Below are positions 54,892 through 64,000 of a stretch of 64,000 nt of DNA, piece by piece. Position numbers and translations under genes: made by a program. Below the pieces are notes generated by a model. That model was not told where the DNA came from. It saw only the letters and a program-made list of their open reading frames with translations, and ran no database searches. Location: NCBI GenBank assembly GCA_963849325.1, contig CAWKHF010000002.1, positions 128,001 through 192,000 on the forward strand. The letters run 5' to 3'. Each line of letters starts with the position of its first letter. Within the stretch, counting starts at the first letter, position 1. Source of the stretch: an uncultured Planctomycetota bacterium (GTDB lineage: Bacteria > Planctomycetota > Planctomycetia > Gemmatales > Gemmataceae).

Positions 54892-55596
54892 ATGCGCACG
54901 ATGTCCGCACCACAAGCTACCCCCCTGAAAAACGGTGTTCCGTTGCTGGCCAACGGCGATCGCATGAAACAACCCGAGTTCCACCGTCGCTACTTGGCTT
55001 CTCCCGATGACGTCAAGTTTGAATTGATCGAAGGGATCGTTTACATGGCATCGCCCCTGCGCTGGAAGCACGGAAACTACAGCCAGGAATTGAGCCTCGT
55101 CTTTGGTCTCTACCGGGCCGCCACCACCGGCGTCGAAGCGGGCGATAACGCCACCATCCTTCTGGGCGAGGAGAGCGAACCGCAACCGAACCTCGTCTTG
55201 CGTATCCTTCCGGAGTATGGCGGTCAATCGCGCCTGGAGGAGGAGTACGATGCGCGGGCCCCGGAGTTGCTGGCGGAGATCGCCTACAGCTCGCGAGCCA
55301 TCGACCTGAATCAAAAACGAAATGATTATGAGCACAATGGCGTCGTGGAATATTTGGTACTGTCCATCGAGGACCAGGAACTACACTGGTTCCATTTCCC
55401 TTCGGCGAAGATGATCCGGCCGAATCGTCAGGGCGTGTCGCGTTCCCTGGTCTTTCCGGGGTTGTGGATCGAGAACCAGTCCTTGCTGGCCCGTAATACC
55501 GCGCGTCAGATTGACGTGGTGCGGCAAGGTCTCGCCAGCCGGGAACACGCCGTGTTTGTCAAGCGTTTGCAAGCCGCTCACCGCAAGCATTCCTGA
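54892..55596 (+). CDS. Uma2 family endonuclease
   Basis: ELIEGIVYM, SEPQPN, PELLAEIAYSS. Confidence 0.9.
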   Translation: MRTMSAPQATPLKNGVPLLANGDRMKQPEFHRRYLASPDDVKFELIEGIVYMASPLRWKHGNYSQELSLVFGLYRAATTGVEAGDNATILLGEESEPQPNLVLRILPEYGGQSRLEEEYDARAPELLAEIAYSSRAIDLNQKRNDYEHNGVVEYLVLSIEDQELHWFHFPSAKMIRPNRQGVSRSLVFPGLWIENQSLLARNTARQIDVVRQGLASREHAVFVKRLQAAHRKHS

Positions 55597-55611
55597 AAAG
55601 GTAACGTCGTC

Positions 55612-56322
55612 ATGAGAGCCTTCTCCACTCCTCACTCGGTTCGCGCGACCAAGAAACCGCTTGAGCCACTCGTCAACGGCGAGCGCATGAAGCAGCCAGA
55701 GTTCCACCGCCGTTACGAGGCGTGTCCCGAAGAGGAGAAATGGGAGCTGATTGGAGGTATCGTCTACATGGCCTCGCCGTTAAGACTGGGCCACTCGCGC
55801 CACGATGGCAAAGTTGGTCTCGTCCTGGAACTGTATGAGCTTGCGACGCCCGGGACAGAGGCACTGCACAATGCGACGATGATCCTCGGCGAGGAAAGCG
55901 AACCGCAGCCGGACCTCGGCCTCCGTATCCTTCCGGAATACGGCGGCCAATCGCGGACGACTCCCAATGACTATCTACAAGGTGCTCCCGAACTCCTCGT
56001 CGAAGTGGCTCATAGCCGCCGTGCCCTTGCCATGCACGGCAAACGCGAGGATTACCAACGCACCGGCGTCCTCGAATACCTCGTCGTTTGCTGGCAGGAA
56101 CAGGAAGTTCACTGGTTCCATTTCCCGACGGGCAAGTCGATTGCGCCCAACCGCCAAGGCATCTCTCGTTCGCGTGTCTTTCCGGGATTGTGGCTCGATG
56201 TCGCGGCGCTGCTTCGCCTGGATTCCGCGCGTCTGATGGAAGTGCTTCAGAAAGGTCTCGCCAGCCGCGAGCATGGCGCGTTCGTCAAGCATCTCCAGAC
56301 CGCCCATCGCAAGCATTCCTGA
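55612..56322 (+). CDS. Uma2 family endonuclease (tandem paralog)
   Basis: ELIGGIVYM, SEPQPD, PELLVEVAHS. Confidence 0.9.
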   Translation: MRAFSTPHSVRATKKPLEPLVNGERMKQPEFHRRYEACPEEEKWELIGGIVYMASPLRLGHSRHDGKVGLVLELYELATPGTEALHNATMILGEESEPQPDLGLRILPEYGGQSRTTPNDYLQGAPELLVEVAHSRRALAMHGKREDYQRTGVLEYLVVCWQEQEVHWFHFPTGKSIAPNRQGISRSRVFPGLWLDVAALLRLDSARLMEVLQKGLASREHGAFVKHLQTAHRKHS

Positions 56323-57140: not shown

Positions 57141-57214
57141 GAAAAAGCTCCCGCGCCCCAATTCTTCTTTGTCTTAGCGATCCTCCTCCATGTAATCTAC
57201 TGAGTGTGCCACCT

Positions 57215-57277
57215 TTCCCGTTCTGAGTGAGTTCTGAGTTCTGTGTGAAAACCGAACTCAGAACTCAGAACGGGAAA
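57215..57277. repeat. Heptamer inverted element (AGTTCTG family, short)
   Basis: TTCCCGTTCTGAG...GTGAAAA...CTCAGAACGGGAA. Confidence 0.85.
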
Positions 57278-57321
57278 GGTGGGCGTTGGTGCTCGCCAGG
57301 TTCCCATGCTTGAGGAATGAC

Positions 57322-59993: not shown

Positions 59994-60009
59994 TGGTAGG
60001 GGAACGGAG

Positions 60010-60083
<74 letters not shown>

Positions 60084-60266: not shown

Positions 60267-60467
60267 TCATTTGTCCTGGCGCTCGGCCCTTTCGGGCAAG
60301 ACCTTGGCCTCCTTCCGGTGTGCCCAGGCTCGACCAATGACGAGCGCTTGCCGGAGGCTGGTCACTGGGATCTTCGACTTGCTGCCGACAGTGAGTCGGC
60401 CCTCTCGGAACTCGTGCAACGCTCTCCGCACCTCGTTCGAGACTTCCGAAGTGTAGGTCCGAATCAT
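60267..60467 (-). CDS. DUF6496-like small basic protein
   Basis: VRRALHEFREGRLTVG...VTSLRQALVIG; GGAGAG RBS. Confidence 0.7.
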   Translation of the reverse strand: MIRTYTSEVSNEVRRALHEFREGRLTVGSKSKIPVTSLRQALVIGRAWAHRKEAKVLPERAERQDK

Positions 60468-60547
60468 GATCGCTCTCCTACCCTGTTCCGGTGGGCGATC
60501 GTGTGCGGCCGGGCCACTGCCCGGTCGAATAGTTACATTACAGATAG

Positions 60548-60564
60548 AGCAAAGAGCGTGCCGG
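60548..60564 (-). promoter_or_regulatory. Putative sigma-54 (-24/-12) promoter
   Basis: Minus strand CCGGCACGCTCTTTGCT (GG-N10-GC). Confidence 0.6.
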
Positions 60565-60585
60565 CTTTGCCACGAAATTGCCCTC

Positions 60586-60675
60586 TGTTACGGAATGACG
60601 CCGGGCGGCTTTGTTACGTTTTGCCCTCTTGTTACGGAATGACGCCGGACGGAGCCGGTCTGTTACGGAATTACA
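60586..60675. promoter_or_regulatory. Four TGTTACG(GAAT) boxes, putative enhancer (UAS) sites
   Basis: TGTTACGGAATGACG x2, TGTTACGTTTTGCC, TGTTACGGAATTACA. Confidence 0.5.
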
Positions 60676-60745
60676 GTAGTGTCTTAAGGTTGCGTTGCAA
60701 TGGCGCGGCTACTACTGGTTTTGCAACGCAATCGCCACTTGCAAT

Positions 60746-61286
60746 TCAGCACGTGGAGACCTGAACGACGCGACCGAAACGGAACCATATGTAGAGGTCG
60801 GGATCGTGTTTTCCGGTTTGAGAATCGCGTCTTGTCGTGATATACCTAGAGGTCTTCGTTCGGATTAGACGCTATCACATTTAGGCCAGCTGGTGCCTCG
60901 CGGGCTATTTCAGCCGGGTTGCCGAGCGTCTGCCGTACTTCCTTCATGGTAAATCCGGCAATCCGTCTTTCCAATTCCTCCACGCTAGGCAAAGTGTCTC
61001 TACTCCGCGAGCGAGTTGCCGTCAGCCACCAACCGATACCGCCAAGACCCATGCAGACCAGTAACAATGTGGCTACACCGCCGACAAGTAGGCGGGGATG
61101 CCGGAACGTCTTCCCTAACGACGTTGCTTGGCTTGTTTCTGTTGCAGGTGGATCGACCCGCACAGCCGTAGGCGGCTTCGGTACAGTTACTTGCTGTTTG
61201 CAGTTACCGCACATCACGGCTTGACCGACGCGCGACGGATCACCAGACAATCGCGTGCCACATTTCGGACAGACGAAGTAGATCAT
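60746..61286 (-). pseudogene. Zinc-ribbon TM protein interrupted by an in-frame TAG (60846-60848) and a frameshift near 60826
   Basis: CPKC...CGNC, TM helix, GFTMKEVRQTLGNP; coding-like sequence continues past TAG as VYHDKTR/DSQTGKHDPDLYIWFRFGRVVQVSTC*. Confidence 0.55.
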
Positions 61287-61555
61287 GGATTGTTACTCCT
61301 GACGGGACGAGGCAGATGGAGACCCACGGAGTCATAAGGTATAGCTACATAGAATGTCTAAAATATCTCCTTAGTAGAGCAAGTTCTCCGGCATTGTCTA
61401 TACTCCTCACAGATTCAGGGCTGGACAGAAAGTTTATTCGATAGACGGCGAAATGCAACGGATCAACTGCGGCTACTGTGCCGTTGATCCGTGCTCGGTC
61501 TTTGAGCGGCATTTTCATCTGACCTGAAAAAATTGATTCTTTTGCGAAATCACAC

Positions 61556-61584
61556 TTGACGAAAACAGAATTGCTGCTCACAAT
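61556..61584 (+). promoter_or_regulatory. Putative sigma-70 promoter for the tRNA cassette
   Basis: TTGACG-N17-CACAAT with AT-rich upstream sequence. Confidence 0.55.
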
Positions 61585-61585
61585 C

Positions 61586-61625
61586 AAAAAGAAGAAGGCC
61601 GGGAGGTTGCACCCTCCCGGCCTCC
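61586..61625 (-). terminator. Hairpin followed by a U-rich tract on the minus strand
   Basis: AGGCCGGGAGG...CCTCCCGGCCT preceded on + by AAAAAGAAGA. Confidence 0.5.
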
Positions 61626-61638
61626 GGGGATACGAAGC

Positions 61639-61710
61639 GCCGGGTTCGTCTATTGGTAGGACAGCGGGCTTTAGCCCCGCTTAAGAGGGGTTCGATTCCC
61701 CCACCCGGCA
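61639..61710 (+). tRNA. tRNA with TTA anticodon (putative ochre suppressor)
   Basis: Acceptor GCCGGGT/ACCCGGC; D-arm GTCT-ATTGGTA-GGAC; anticodon arm GCGGG-CTTTAGC-CCCGC; T-arm AGGGG-TTCGATT-CCCCC; A73. Confidence 0.8.
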
Positions 61711-61766
61711 TTTCGTTCCTTAATTTTACCAAACGTGGCAACCGCGTCAACCAGAAAGAGGCTCCC

Positions 61767-62243
61767 ATGTCTCCGCGCATCGAAGCCACCGACAAGGATG
61801 GCATTCGGTGGGTGGTTACTGGCAATAGTCATACGGACTTGGAACTTGGCATCACGGCTTTACGAGCCAGTTTTGCCCACAAAGAGGAAGTCGTACCGTC
61901 GCGCCGACGCGGACGACCGCCCAAGAATGGTGTTGCCAAAAGCAACGAAGTTGAGAAGACACGATTGGAAGCAGCCTTGTCCATCCTGCGAGCGATTCAG
62001 AAGGGTGGCGATGCCGGTGCAGATTCATCTTCGCTTCTCTCCGCAACCGGGATCGACAAGCCGGAAGCCAAGGCGCTCGGGCCGATGATGGGGATGCTCG
62101 CCAGAGTCTTACGAGATAATCGTCTGACGCAAAACAAAATCTACATCACAACTGGTTTCAGTCCTAACAAGCGATGGGTTCCGCAAGCGGAAATGAATGA
62201 TGCGATCAAGAAACTGGAAGAAACCATGAAGAATCAACTCTAA
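61767..62243 (+). CDS. Hypothetical AT-hook-containing putative DNA-binding protein
   Basis: AGAGG RBS, 158 aa, RRRGRPPK, helical C-terminal domain. Confidence 0.7.
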   Translation: MSPRIEATDKDGIRWVVTGNSHTDLELGITALRASFAHKEEVVPSRRRGRPPKNGVAKSNEVEKTRLEAALSILRAIQKGGDAGADSSSLLSATGIDKPEAKALGPMMGMLARVLRDNRLTQNKIYITTGFSPNKRWVPQAEMNDAIKKLEETMKNQL

Positions 62244-62307
62244 ATAGCGACTTGTAAACGCTGGCGATGGCCTAGAATCCGTGCGCCACCAGTCCGGGCT
62301 GTATCGT

Positions 62308-62401
62308 GGAGAGCGGCCCGCGTCTTGGCCGGCGCACTGGCTTTACAAACCAGCGAAGGGACCGGGTTTGCACCCGGCAGGTTCAATTCCCCCGCTCTCC
62401 G
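62308..62401 (+). tRNA. 9/3 allo-tRNA-like gene (anticodon TAC, long V-arm, G73)
   Basis: 9-bp acceptor GGAGAGCGG/CCGCTCTCC; D-stem GCGTC/GGCGC; anticodon arm CTGG(C)-TTTACAA-(A)CCAG; V-arm CCGGGT-TTGC-ACCCGG; T-arm AGG-TTCAATT-CCC. Confidence 0.6.
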
Positions 62402-62586
62402 TCTTTCCGCAATTGATCTTCAGCAGCTTGCAGCAGGATCGGCCGCGCCCACGCGGCCATGTCGCCCCCTGCGCTCAAAGCTGCCTCCATGACGCGGGCC
62501 TTCTGCGCTGGCGTTACCGGGATGCGCAGGTCTACGTCTTTCGCCTCCGCCTTTGGTTTCATCGGTCGCCCGCGTCGTTTCTTCAT
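62383..62586 (-). CDS. Small ribbon-helix-helix-like regulator divergent from the transposase
   Basis: KKRRGRP...LRIPVTPAQKARVMEAA...MAAWARPILLQAA. Confidence 0.7.
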   Translation of the reverse strand: MKKRRGRPMKPKAEAKDVDLRIPVTPAQKARVMEAALSAGGDMAAWARPILLQAAEDQLRKDGERGN

Positions 62587-62699
62587 GGAAATAAGTGTAG
62601 CAAAAAAAATCTGGATTCAAGCCTCCGGGTTTTTATTGTTGTTTTATTTATACTACAATAAATCAGAGGAGACAGCACTCGCGTTTAAGGGAAATCCCA

Positions 62700-63685
62700 A
62701 TGAACGCACGCGAAGAACGCGGCCTTGTTATCGCGGCCCTGTGCAAGCTGAACAAGACGCCGGACGGGTGGCTTGTCCCGTCGCAGTCGAACGAGACGAT
62801 CTACCGCGTGAACGTGGAAAAGCAGACCTGCACTTGCCCGGATCACCAAGAGGGTGGGTTCAAGTGCAAGCACCTGTACGCCGTCGAATTCACCGCCAAG
62901 CGGGAAGTCGGCACGGACGGCACCGTGACCGAGACGAAGACGCTGACCTTCACGGAGAAGGTGACGTACAAGCAGGACTGGCCCGCGTACAACCTCGCCA
63001 GAGCATCGAGAAGGACCGCCTGCAAGAACTTCTCTTCGACCTGTGCCGTGGCATCGAAGAACCCGAGCGCAGCGGCAGCGGTCGCAAGCCGCATTCGATG
63101 AAGGACATCGATCTTCGCGTCGGTGTTCAAGGTCTACAGCACGATCAGCAGCCGGCGCTTCTCTTCCGACCTGCGCGAAGCCCACGAACGCGGCTACCTG
63201 TCCAAGCCGATTCCCGGCCTGAAAGTGCCGCAGTTCTTTGAGAACGCGGCCCTCACGCCGATCCTCAAGAGCCTGATCGTCCAGAGCAGCTTGCCGCTCC
63301 GCTCGGTCGAAACGAAGTTCGCCATCGACAGCAGCGGCTTTTCGACCAGCAAGTTCGAGCGCTGGTTCGATCACAAGTACGGCGTCACGCGGCGGCGATG
63401 CACCTGGATCAAGGTCCATATCGCGTGCGGCGTCAAAACGAACGTGGTGACGGCGGTTCGCATTCTGGACAAGGACGCGGCACGACTCCCCGCAGTTCAT
63501 CCCGCTCGTCAAGGAAACGGCCAAGAACTTCACCATCGGCGAAGTGTCGGCGGACAAGGCATACGCCAGCGTGGAGAACTTTGAGACCGTCGCCGAGTGC
63601 GGCGGGACCGGCTTTATGGCCTTCAAGTCGAACACGACCGGCGCGGCCGGCGGACTGTTCCAGAAGATGTTCCACTATTTCCAGT
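62700..63685 (+). mobile_element. SWIM-zinc-finger DDE (IS5-like) transposase, frameshifted and truncated by an IS insertion
   Basis: CTCPD...CKH SWIM; DWPAYN; FAIDSSG; WIKVH; VSADKAY; breaks after FQKMFHYFQ, before the catalytic Glu. Confidence 0.85.
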
Positions 63686-64000
63686 CTGTACTTTCCGCGA
63701 TTTCCTTATAGTTCGCCATAAGCGATCACTCTTGGGCGTAAAGTTGCTGGCGAGGTAACGAAGCATGGCTGCGACGAGCGGGTGGACACAAGCCGGCTCC
63801 TCGAACACGATGAAGGGTAGTCAACAACCTTCGTCCTGCCAAGGAGCCGGCCATGCCATTGTCGCAACTGCCCGCCCTGCTGTCCGCCTGTTTCCCCGAC
63901 ATCACCGCCGCCCTCGACCGCCGCTCCGCCCCCCGCCTGCTCCTGCTCTTCGTCGGCGCCCTCTTCGCCAAGGGCCGACGCACCGTCACCTCCTGGTTCC
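63686..64000 (+). mobile_element. IS701-family-like element: left end and transposase 5' part (ATG 63853)
   Basis: Junction CTGTACTTTCCG; AAGGAG RBS; MPLSQLPALLSACF...ALDRRSAPRL...GALFAKGRRTVTSWF; runs off the window. Confidence 0.7.

Follow-up and report, generated by a model that had tools for sequence, protein, structure and literature searches.

The window analyzed here is a 64,000-nucleotide (nt) stretch of DNA from an uncultured Planctomycetota bacterium of the family Gemmataceae (contig CAWKHF010000002.1 of GenBank assembly GCA_963849325.1, positions 128,001 to 192,000). It carries a class I transfer RNA (tRNA) gene with the anticodon UUA at 61639-61710 on the positive strand, which ARAGORN names tRNA-Stop(tta). 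This UUA tRNA is a real, structurally intact tRNA gene. By its sequence it belongs to the glutamate (Glu) family, and a single base change, C36 to A, appears to have turned a UUC anticodon into UUA. We think that it is probably a horizontally acquired passenger that the host tolerates, at best a weak ochre suppressor, with no dedicated target and no part in any recoding.

The UUA tRNA matched the Rfam tRNA model (RF00005) over model positions 1 to 71 with 52.7 bits (E = 2.3e-9; gathering score, 29). It ranks 56th among the 86 matches to this model genome-wide and lies inside the range of the other host tRNAs, near the scores of tRNAs in the host's tRNA arrays and slightly under that of the housekeeping tRNA-Glu(UUC) (58.5 bits). 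The minimum free energy fold of 61639-61710 is a cloverleaf. Its acceptor stem has 7 bp (GCCGGGT/ACCCGGC); the D arm (GTCT-ATTGGTA-GGAC) contains G18G19; and the 5-bp anticodon stem (GCGGG/CCCGC) closes a 7-nt loop, CTTTAGC, with U33, G37, and the anticodon (positions 34 to 36) at 61671-61673 on the positive strand. The variable loop is 5 nt long (TTAAG, giving A46), the T arm (AGGGG-TTCGATT-CCCCC) has a TTCRA-type loop and a sole mismatch, A49·C65, the discriminator base is A, and CCA is not encoded. These are the features of a canonical elongator tRNA (7/5 acceptor/T branch, G18G19, U33, 7-nt loop, and T loop), and by sequence the gene is a candidate ochre suppressor, with a UUA anticodon on a body otherwise fit for translation. 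A first-pass annotation, made from the letters of the window, had described the gene as a complete cloverleaf and a candidate ochre/amber suppressor, and every structural detail of that description is present in the sequence. Its authoring model had also considered an indel artifact unlikely; the anticodon loop and the stems are indeed in register.

The UUA tRNA is closest to a tRNA-Glu(UUC) of metagenomic origin, found at loci L036 and L038, with 56 of 72 positions identical. The two tRNAs show no differences at 15 D-arm and 17 T-arm positions and have in common the A49·C65 mismatch, a 5-nt variable loop (one base differs), G37, and C38; their anticodon loops (CTTTAGC in the UUA tRNA, CTTTCGC in L036/L038) differ solely at position 36, A versus C. 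Of the 16 differences from L036, 13 fall in the acceptor and anticodon stems, where pairing is kept throughout and six pairs are changed on both sides. Because the D arm, the T arm, the length of the variable loop, and the anticodon loop match those of the L036/L038 tRNA-Glu(UUC), we assign the UUA tRNA to the Glu type, in which C36 would have been replaced by A. L036 and L038 are one element, whose ~1.5 to 2.1 kb of surrounding sequence also holds an HNH endonuclease-like open reading frame (ORF), a tRNA-Gln, and a tRNA-Pro, a content compatible with either a phage or a cell. Three other loci, L037, L039, and L043, likewise share one tRNA.

Other comparisons pointed in the same direction. The exact D arm (positions 8 to 26) occurs in 12 other tRNAs, five Glu(UUC), four glutamine (Gln) UUG, two Gln(CUG), and one with the anticodon UAU. 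Three of these are in species genomes (one each of Glu UUC, Gln UUG, and Gln CUG) and nine in metagenome contigs (Glu UUC, 4; Gln UUG, 3; Gln CUG, 1; UAU, 1). The first-pass annotation had likened the D arm to those of Gln and Glu tRNAs and proposed a UUG or UUC ancestor; all 12 but the UAU tRNA are of Glu or Gln type, and a UUC ancestor fits the nearest relative, whose anticodon loop differs at position 36 only. Comparing the anticodons of homologs, which it had recommended as a check, speaks for UUC/UUG descent but produced no second UUA among the 12 tRNAs with an identical D arm. With the anticodon masked, 9 Glu and 4 Gln tRNAs were among the 20 most similar of 192 distinct collected tRNAs, a set biased by its D-arm selection. 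Among plasmids, the best match is one of seven consecutive tRNAs on the Pseudomonas megaplasmid pBASL58, a tRNA-Glu(UUC); the best phage match is a tRNA-Trp (78.7% identity); and the best partial matches in 60 relatives of the host are tRNA-Gln(CUG) and tRNA-Glu genes of tRNA arrays.

We rejected two other origins. Descent from a Gln or lysine (Lys) tRNA does not suit a T arm, variable loop, and anticodon loop that fit Glu(UUC), and the U1-A72 pair of the Gln relatives is absent; a recent point mutation of a host tRNA does not suit a best host paralogue, a long-arm tRNA, that agrees at only 55 of 72 positions. The UAU tRNA with the same Glu/Gln-type D arm (L041:1346-1416, negative strand; Rfam, 58.1 bits) also has its first four acceptor pairs and A73 in common with the UUA tRNA.

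In the collections searched, the UUA tRNA appears to be an unconserved singleton. BLAST of its 72 bases against its own genome gave no match beyond the gene itself, and the 60 relatives held no full-length match; the window copy alone was found. A pattern combining the Glu-type D arm, UUA, and the T loop had no matches in genome_contigs and none in viral_contigs, while in control runs it found the window copy and matched 0 of 100 shuffled sequences. A second pattern, which described the L036-type subfamily and left position 36 free, likewise had no matches in genome_contigs and viral_contigs, and a near-exact UUA tRNA pattern had none in viral_contigs. A general pattern (C32-UUA-R37 plus T loop) gave four matches in 100 relatives, none of which ARAGORN calls a tRNA. 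By eye, L075 (G020:C395) is a 3'-half tRNA fragment with the loop CTTTAGA, and L077 (G027:C53) resembles an irregular tRNA whose acceptor stem and T arm are good but whose D region is odd and whose loop has 9 nt; ARAGORN made no call for either.

The host genome is not recoded. The assembly comprises 8.16 Mb in 14 contigs, with 65% GC, and includes the window in its contig C2. We examined its frames that run from stop to stop over 250 or more codons and have GC3 (GC content at third codon positions) above 0.78 and GC2 (at second positions) below 0.60. Of 2,634 such frames, 1,649 end in TGA, 548 (21%) in TAA, and 437 in TAG. The gene for release factor 1 (RF1) scores over its curated cutoff, and the genome has a second release-factor paralogue. 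In-frame continuation of coding-like sequence was seen past 19 of 737 TAA, 66 of 2,011 TGA, and 27 of 583 TAG codons; TAA is passed no more often than TGA or TAG. We conclude that the host uses the standard code because TAA closes 548 of 2,634 frames, RF1 is present, and coding past TAA is not in excess. The first-pass annotation had argued from a few ribosomal protein genes that TAA still serves as a stop and that there is no genome-wide recoding; stop usage in long, high-GC3 frames bears out the former, and stop usage, RF1, and the continuation counts together agree with the latter. Neither hallmark of a recoded organism, matching in-frame stops or loss of a release factor, is found in the host or in the islet of DNA around the UUA tRNA.

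The tRNA complement of the host is large; ARAGORN found 92 tRNA genes, one transfer-messenger RNA gene, and three dense tRNA arrays (Table 1). Arrays in relatives (L004, L008, and L012) hold up to 20 tRNAs in ~1.8 kb, tRNA-Ile(UAU) included. Three long tRNA-like sequences in the host (G000 C1:476146-476235, C6:820794-820903, and C3:92898-92987) have weak scores for selenocysteine tRNA (tRNA-Sec) or tRNA, and ARAGORN gives one of them a 4-base "anticodon"; they may be irregular or allo-type tRNAs.

How the UUA tRNA would be charged can be judged against the Escherichia coli tRNA-Glu identity set, which we took from the available text of PMC9976931. The UUA tRNA keeps U34, U35, U11-A24, U13-G22 with A46, and G1-C72, and lacks C36, A37, and the absence of nucleotide 47 (PMC9976931). 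According to the same portion of that paper, the three lacking elements are strong Glu determinants, while G1-C72 and U2-A71 are weak ones (PMC9976931); position 2-71 of the UUA tRNA is C-G, not U-A. With C36 lost, A37 lacking, and nucleotide 47 present, the tRNA should be a poor substrate for glutamyl-tRNA synthetase (GluRS), and its charging by GluRS is doubtful. The Glu(UUC) relative at L036 also has G37 and a 5-nt variable loop; other Glu relatives have 4 nt. Recognition by lysyl-tRNA synthetase (LysRS) is favored by U35 and A73, and a gene for glutaminyl-tRNA synthetase (GlnRS) is present in the host, so mischarging by LysRS or GlnRS may occur. In decoding, the pairing of A36 with the first codon base, U, should be weaker next to G37 than next to a modified A37. 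For scale, the accessible part of a study of an engineered human tRNA-Glu with a UUA anticodon gives ~16% reading of UAA, ~3-fold below that of the CUA version on UAG (PMC12204705).

The UUA tRNA lies in a low-GC islet (60400-62800, about 2.6 kb) of 48 to 57% GC, compared with 65 to 69% in its flanks and 65% in the genome; the islet sequence is unique within the host genome. Two well-assembled same-genus genomes resemble the host at the DNA level up to 59859, past a phosphoesterase gene, and no further. The tRNA-Gly(GCC) gene at the left edge of the islet sits elsewhere in the same-genus genomes, away from the phosphoesterase gene. We rejected integration at this tRNA-Gly gene: the islet lies on its 5' side, and we saw no repeat of it. 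No phage or plasmid genes were found around the UUA tRNA in Pfam and PHROGs scans, the islet ORFs showed no in-frame TAA, and we saw no gene that requires the UUA tRNA. The islet looks foreign and strain-specific and was most likely acquired horizontally. An insertion sequence with copies on two other contigs comes after it, and the SWIM/DDE transposase reading frame changes near 62985-63000 and 63470-63490, one of the changes being at a short C run.

Besides the UUA tRNA, the islet encodes an RNA that resembles the allo-tRNAs of Mukai et al. (PMC5389517). It has homologs (L081, L082, and L083) in three other genera of the family, with 89, 79, and 74% identity. Their consensus fold has a 9-bp acceptor stem, a 5-bp D stem, a 4-bp anticodon stem, a 9-nt loop, a long variable arm, and a 3-bp T stem, which corresponds to the 9/3 allo-tRNA architecture as set out in the available text of Mukai et al. 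(PMC5389517); 2 of 25 pairs are compensated in the alignment. The central triplet is UAC here and in one homolog and UAU in the other two. The allo-tRNA-like RNA and the UUA tRNA are 598 nt apart, with a 477-nt ORF (orf158) between them; at the three homologous loci, no tRNA lies within 1.5 kb, and flanking genes are not shared. Of the two, the allo-tRNA-like RNA is the more reproducible find. The part of PMC5389517 that was available describes allo-tRNA(UAU) species as abundant, often with destabilized stems, inactive in translation tests, and located near transposons and toxin-antitoxin genes; it also places allo-tRNA-like sequences in polycistrons with irregular, suppressor-like tRNAs. The string "Planctomyc" is absent from the main text of that paper as available (PMC5389517).

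Table 1. Features near the UUA tRNA in the window and tRNA arrays elsewhere in the host genome (G000)
Feature	Location	Strand	Basis
Ordinary tRNA-Gly(GCC), left edge of islet	60009-60081	−	ARAGORN; Rfam, 70 bits
146-amino-acid (aa) ORF with Cys pairs and a hydrophobic stretch	In islet	−	ORF list
Promoter-like TTGACG-17-CACAAT, 55 nt 5' of the UUA tRNA	61556-61584	+	Consensus scan, 9/12, weak
13-bp GC-rich hairpin	61594-61625		Terminator scan; T-run after it on −, tRNA leader on +
Promoter-like TTGACG-16-TAAAAT with TG extension, just 3' of the UUA tRNA	61750-61723	−	Consensus scan, 10/12
orf158, conserved hypothetical protein, TAA-terminated, directly 3' of the UUA tRNA	61767-62243	+	
Allo-tRNA-like RNA CUUUACAAA	62308-62401	+	tRNA-Sec model, 28.6 bits, under gathering score of 47
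67-aa ORF overlapping the 3' end of the allo-tRNA-like RNA	62383-62586	−	Weak PHROG match, E 0.0048
SWIM zinc finger plus DDE transposase, several frames	62700-63721	+	Pfam SWIM, 1.2e-8; DDE_Tnp_1, 1.1e-4
Host tRNA array, 7 genes	C1:515629-516193		
Host tRNA array, 13 genes	C4:433741-435175		
Host tRNA array, 12 genes	C12:838476-839555		

We favor, as the probable account, a tolerated passenger tRNA whose function is slight or nil, of the following kind. The low-GC, strain-specific islet, with its allo-tRNA-like RNA and transposase frames, would have brought the UUA tRNA into the host. The weak upstream promoter-like site might drive transcription of an RNA whose leader is the hairpin, and processing and CCA addition would proceed as for the host's other tRNA genes that lack an encoded CCA. 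The mature tRNA would base-pair with UAA codons and, through wobble at U34, also with UAG codons; G37 and competition by release factors at UAA would hold read-through to a low level at most. Only weak suppression should be tolerable because two release factors compete and a fifth of the genes end in TAA.

Three points weigh against this account. Perfect stems and the presence of all conserved tertiary positions could signal upkeep by selection rather than passive carriage; the allo-tRNA-like RNA is ~600 nt away, so the two could form a functional module (compare the available text of PMC5389517); and the relatives on which the Glu assignment draws were gathered with patterns that fix the D arm, which skews the set toward Glu and Gln types.

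The first two of these points bear on the rival that survives best, which we consider unlikely: that selection maintains the UUA tRNA as a working suppressor to the benefit of the mobile islet or of a larger element from which it came, where it might read through a UAA in an element gene, tune expression, or act jointly with the allo-tRNA-like RNA. Consistent with selection are the intact cloverleaf, with stems compensated relative to L036/L038, the promoter-like site upstream, and the conservation of the allo-tRNA-like neighbor in three other genera, as well as the loci, in the accessible portion of PMC5389517, where irregular tRNAs of a suppressor-like kind have allo-tRNA-like sequences, transposons, and toxin-antitoxin genes as neighbors. 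The adjoining orf158, conserved in two metagenome proteins, ends in TAA, which also counts in favor; however, the 82-residue tail that would follow is rich in Arg and Ala, crosses the allo-tRNA-like RNA, and shows no sign of coding. Also against selection, no UUA homolog turned up in any collection searched, none of the three homologous allo-tRNA-like loci has a tRNA within 1.5 kb or common flanks, the islet genes are without an in-frame TAA, and there are no phage or plasmid genes nearby. The tRNA itself has G37 and lacks Glu determinants.

We think it improbable, and more so than selected suppression, that the gene encodes a tRNA-shaped RNA with a role outside translation, such as that of a decoy, a regulator, or a processing signal, or that of a sense RNA controlled by an antisense partner. 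In favor of this, the promoter match on the negative strand is the better of the two (10/12, with a TG extension), and a hairpin followed by a T-run has the layout of a small RNA gene; together, this promoter-like site and the hairpin/T-run would bound a ~130-nt RNA antisense to the whole UUA tRNA. The hairpin folds with −25.7 kcal/mol as positive-strand RNA and also forms 13 bp in negative-strand RNA. A precedent for tRNAs outside translation comes from the available text of PMC5389517, in which irregular tRNAs are charged yet unused in translation and allo-tRNA(UAU) is inactive. Yet the three promoter-like sites in the 3-kb region are not significantly more than the 1.2 ± 1.0 found in shuffled sequences, the tRNA score is on the positive strand and not the negative, and U33, the 7-nt loop, the T loop, and the 7/5 acceptor branch are all present, as expected of a tRNA made for the ribosome. 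The hexamers GCCGGG/CCCGGC are common to the hairpin stem (61596-61623) and the acceptor stem (61639-61644 and 61704-61709); an alternative pairing of leader and tRNA is conceivable, and the repetition may be chance in GC-rich DNA.

A bolder combination of these elements, which we regard as very unlikely, would make the locus a read-through switch. In it, a cis-antisense small RNA (promoter-like site at 61750-61723, terminator hairpin at 61625-61594) would restrain a Glu-type ochre suppressor, and the suppressor and the allo-tRNA-like RNA would move as one mobile cassette that changes how stop codons are read or serves as a tRNA-based addiction system. If such a locus existed, its coupling of a tRNA gene to an antisense regulator of that gene would be new.

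Least probable of all is that A36 is a base-calling error and that the gene is really one more tRNA-Glu(UUC) of the ordinary kind: the nearest relative does have C at position 36, and glnS is split over two frames (G000 C10:123144-124722), a short C run coincides with a break in the transposase frame, and the 14-contig genome has a marker completeness of 84.69%, but the errors seen are indels, the anticodon region is in register so that a substitution would be required, and substitutions are much rarer than indels in consensus sequences. The split glnS, the frame changes in the transposase, and the 84.69% completeness suggest assembly indels rather than real pseudogenes.

Several known systems resemble the UUA tRNA in part. 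The classical E. coli ochre suppressors are single-base anticodon mutants of tRNA-Lys, tRNA-Gln, and tRNA-Tyr. Like them, the UUA tRNA has an anticodon one base from a sense anticodon on a normal elongator body, in a host with the standard code; unlike them (duplicated chromosomal genes obtained by laboratory selection, with A37), it has a Glu body and G37, lacks a close paralogue, and lies in a foreign islet. A Glu-derived ochre suppressor, tRNA(Glu)-Suoc, is reported to have been engineered by Raftery and Yarus (EMBO J, 1987). This suppressor and the engineered human tRNA-Glu, as described in the available part of its report (PMC12204705), carry UUA on a Glu body just as the window tRNA does, but they were engineered and bettered by changes in the anticodon arm, whereas the window tRNA is natural.

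The loci of Mukai et al., in the portion of their paper that was available (PMC5389517), also place a suppressor-like tRNA by an allo-tRNA-like RNA with transposon genes near (transposase frames, here), and they include 9/3 allo-tRNAs with a UUA anticodon (PMC5389517). There, UUA occurs on allo-type tRNAs within tight polycistrons, whereas here it is on a canonical 7/5, Glu-type tRNA with an ORF in between; moreover, the D-arm motif of the UUA tRNA and three motifs of the allo-tRNA-like RNA are absent from the supplementary table of PMC5389517 in the form available. The resemblance to these cassettes, judged by sequence, seems real but limited. Orphan suppressor tRNAs of standard-code phages and suppressor tRNAs of stop-recoded phages likewise read stop codons, are carried by DNA that moves horizontally, and lack an evident target, but there are no phage genes around the UUA tRNA, and three patterns had no matches in viral_contigs. 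Finally, the nearest tRNA bodies are Glu and Gln tRNAs of tRNA arrays (G049, G018, and G012; pBASL58; the host's three arrays); unlike these, the UUA tRNA stands alone, and no array tRNA that we examined has UUA.

Stop-reading tRNAs on mobile DNA under the standard code are thus already known, and the UUA tRNA adds a Glu-family example. The puzzle posed by natural tRNAs of this kind is what is read through and how the cost is tolerated; this example has for its setting a large, GC-rich genome and an adjoining, conserved allo-tRNA-like RNA. If expressed and charged, the UUA tRNA would be a natural Glu-type UAA suppressor to set beside the engineered ones and would help to test whether allo-tRNA elements carry such tRNAs along. 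At present its value is mainly that of a catalog entry and of a caution against inferring a change of code from a single tRNA.

Among the neighboring genes, orf158 has only two homologs among 5.8 billion proteins, both metagenomic, with 60 and 46% identity; it has no relatives in genome_contigs or viral_contigs nor in any of 400 other genomes of the phylum, and no Pfam, PHROGs, or NCBIfam family. Its structure model (predicted local distance difference test score, 66.7) has no Foldseek match at E ≤ 0.001, and its unnamed Atlas matches score 0.86. Apart from the weak PHROG match of the 67-aa ORF, no small protein of the islet, the 146-aa one included, has a match in Pfam, PHROGs, or NCBIfam, and no antitoxin family was found for the 67-aa ORF in these scans. 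Outside the islet, two adjacent genes of the Uma2 family (putative restriction endonucleases) at 54892-56322 on the positive strand lie in DNA of lowered GC content (57 to 60%). A long, near-perfect palindrome at 57206-57287, with weak matches to microRNA models on both strands, sits between genes for a CDP-alcohol phosphatidyltransferase-like protein and a beta-propeller protein and is probably a bidirectional terminator.

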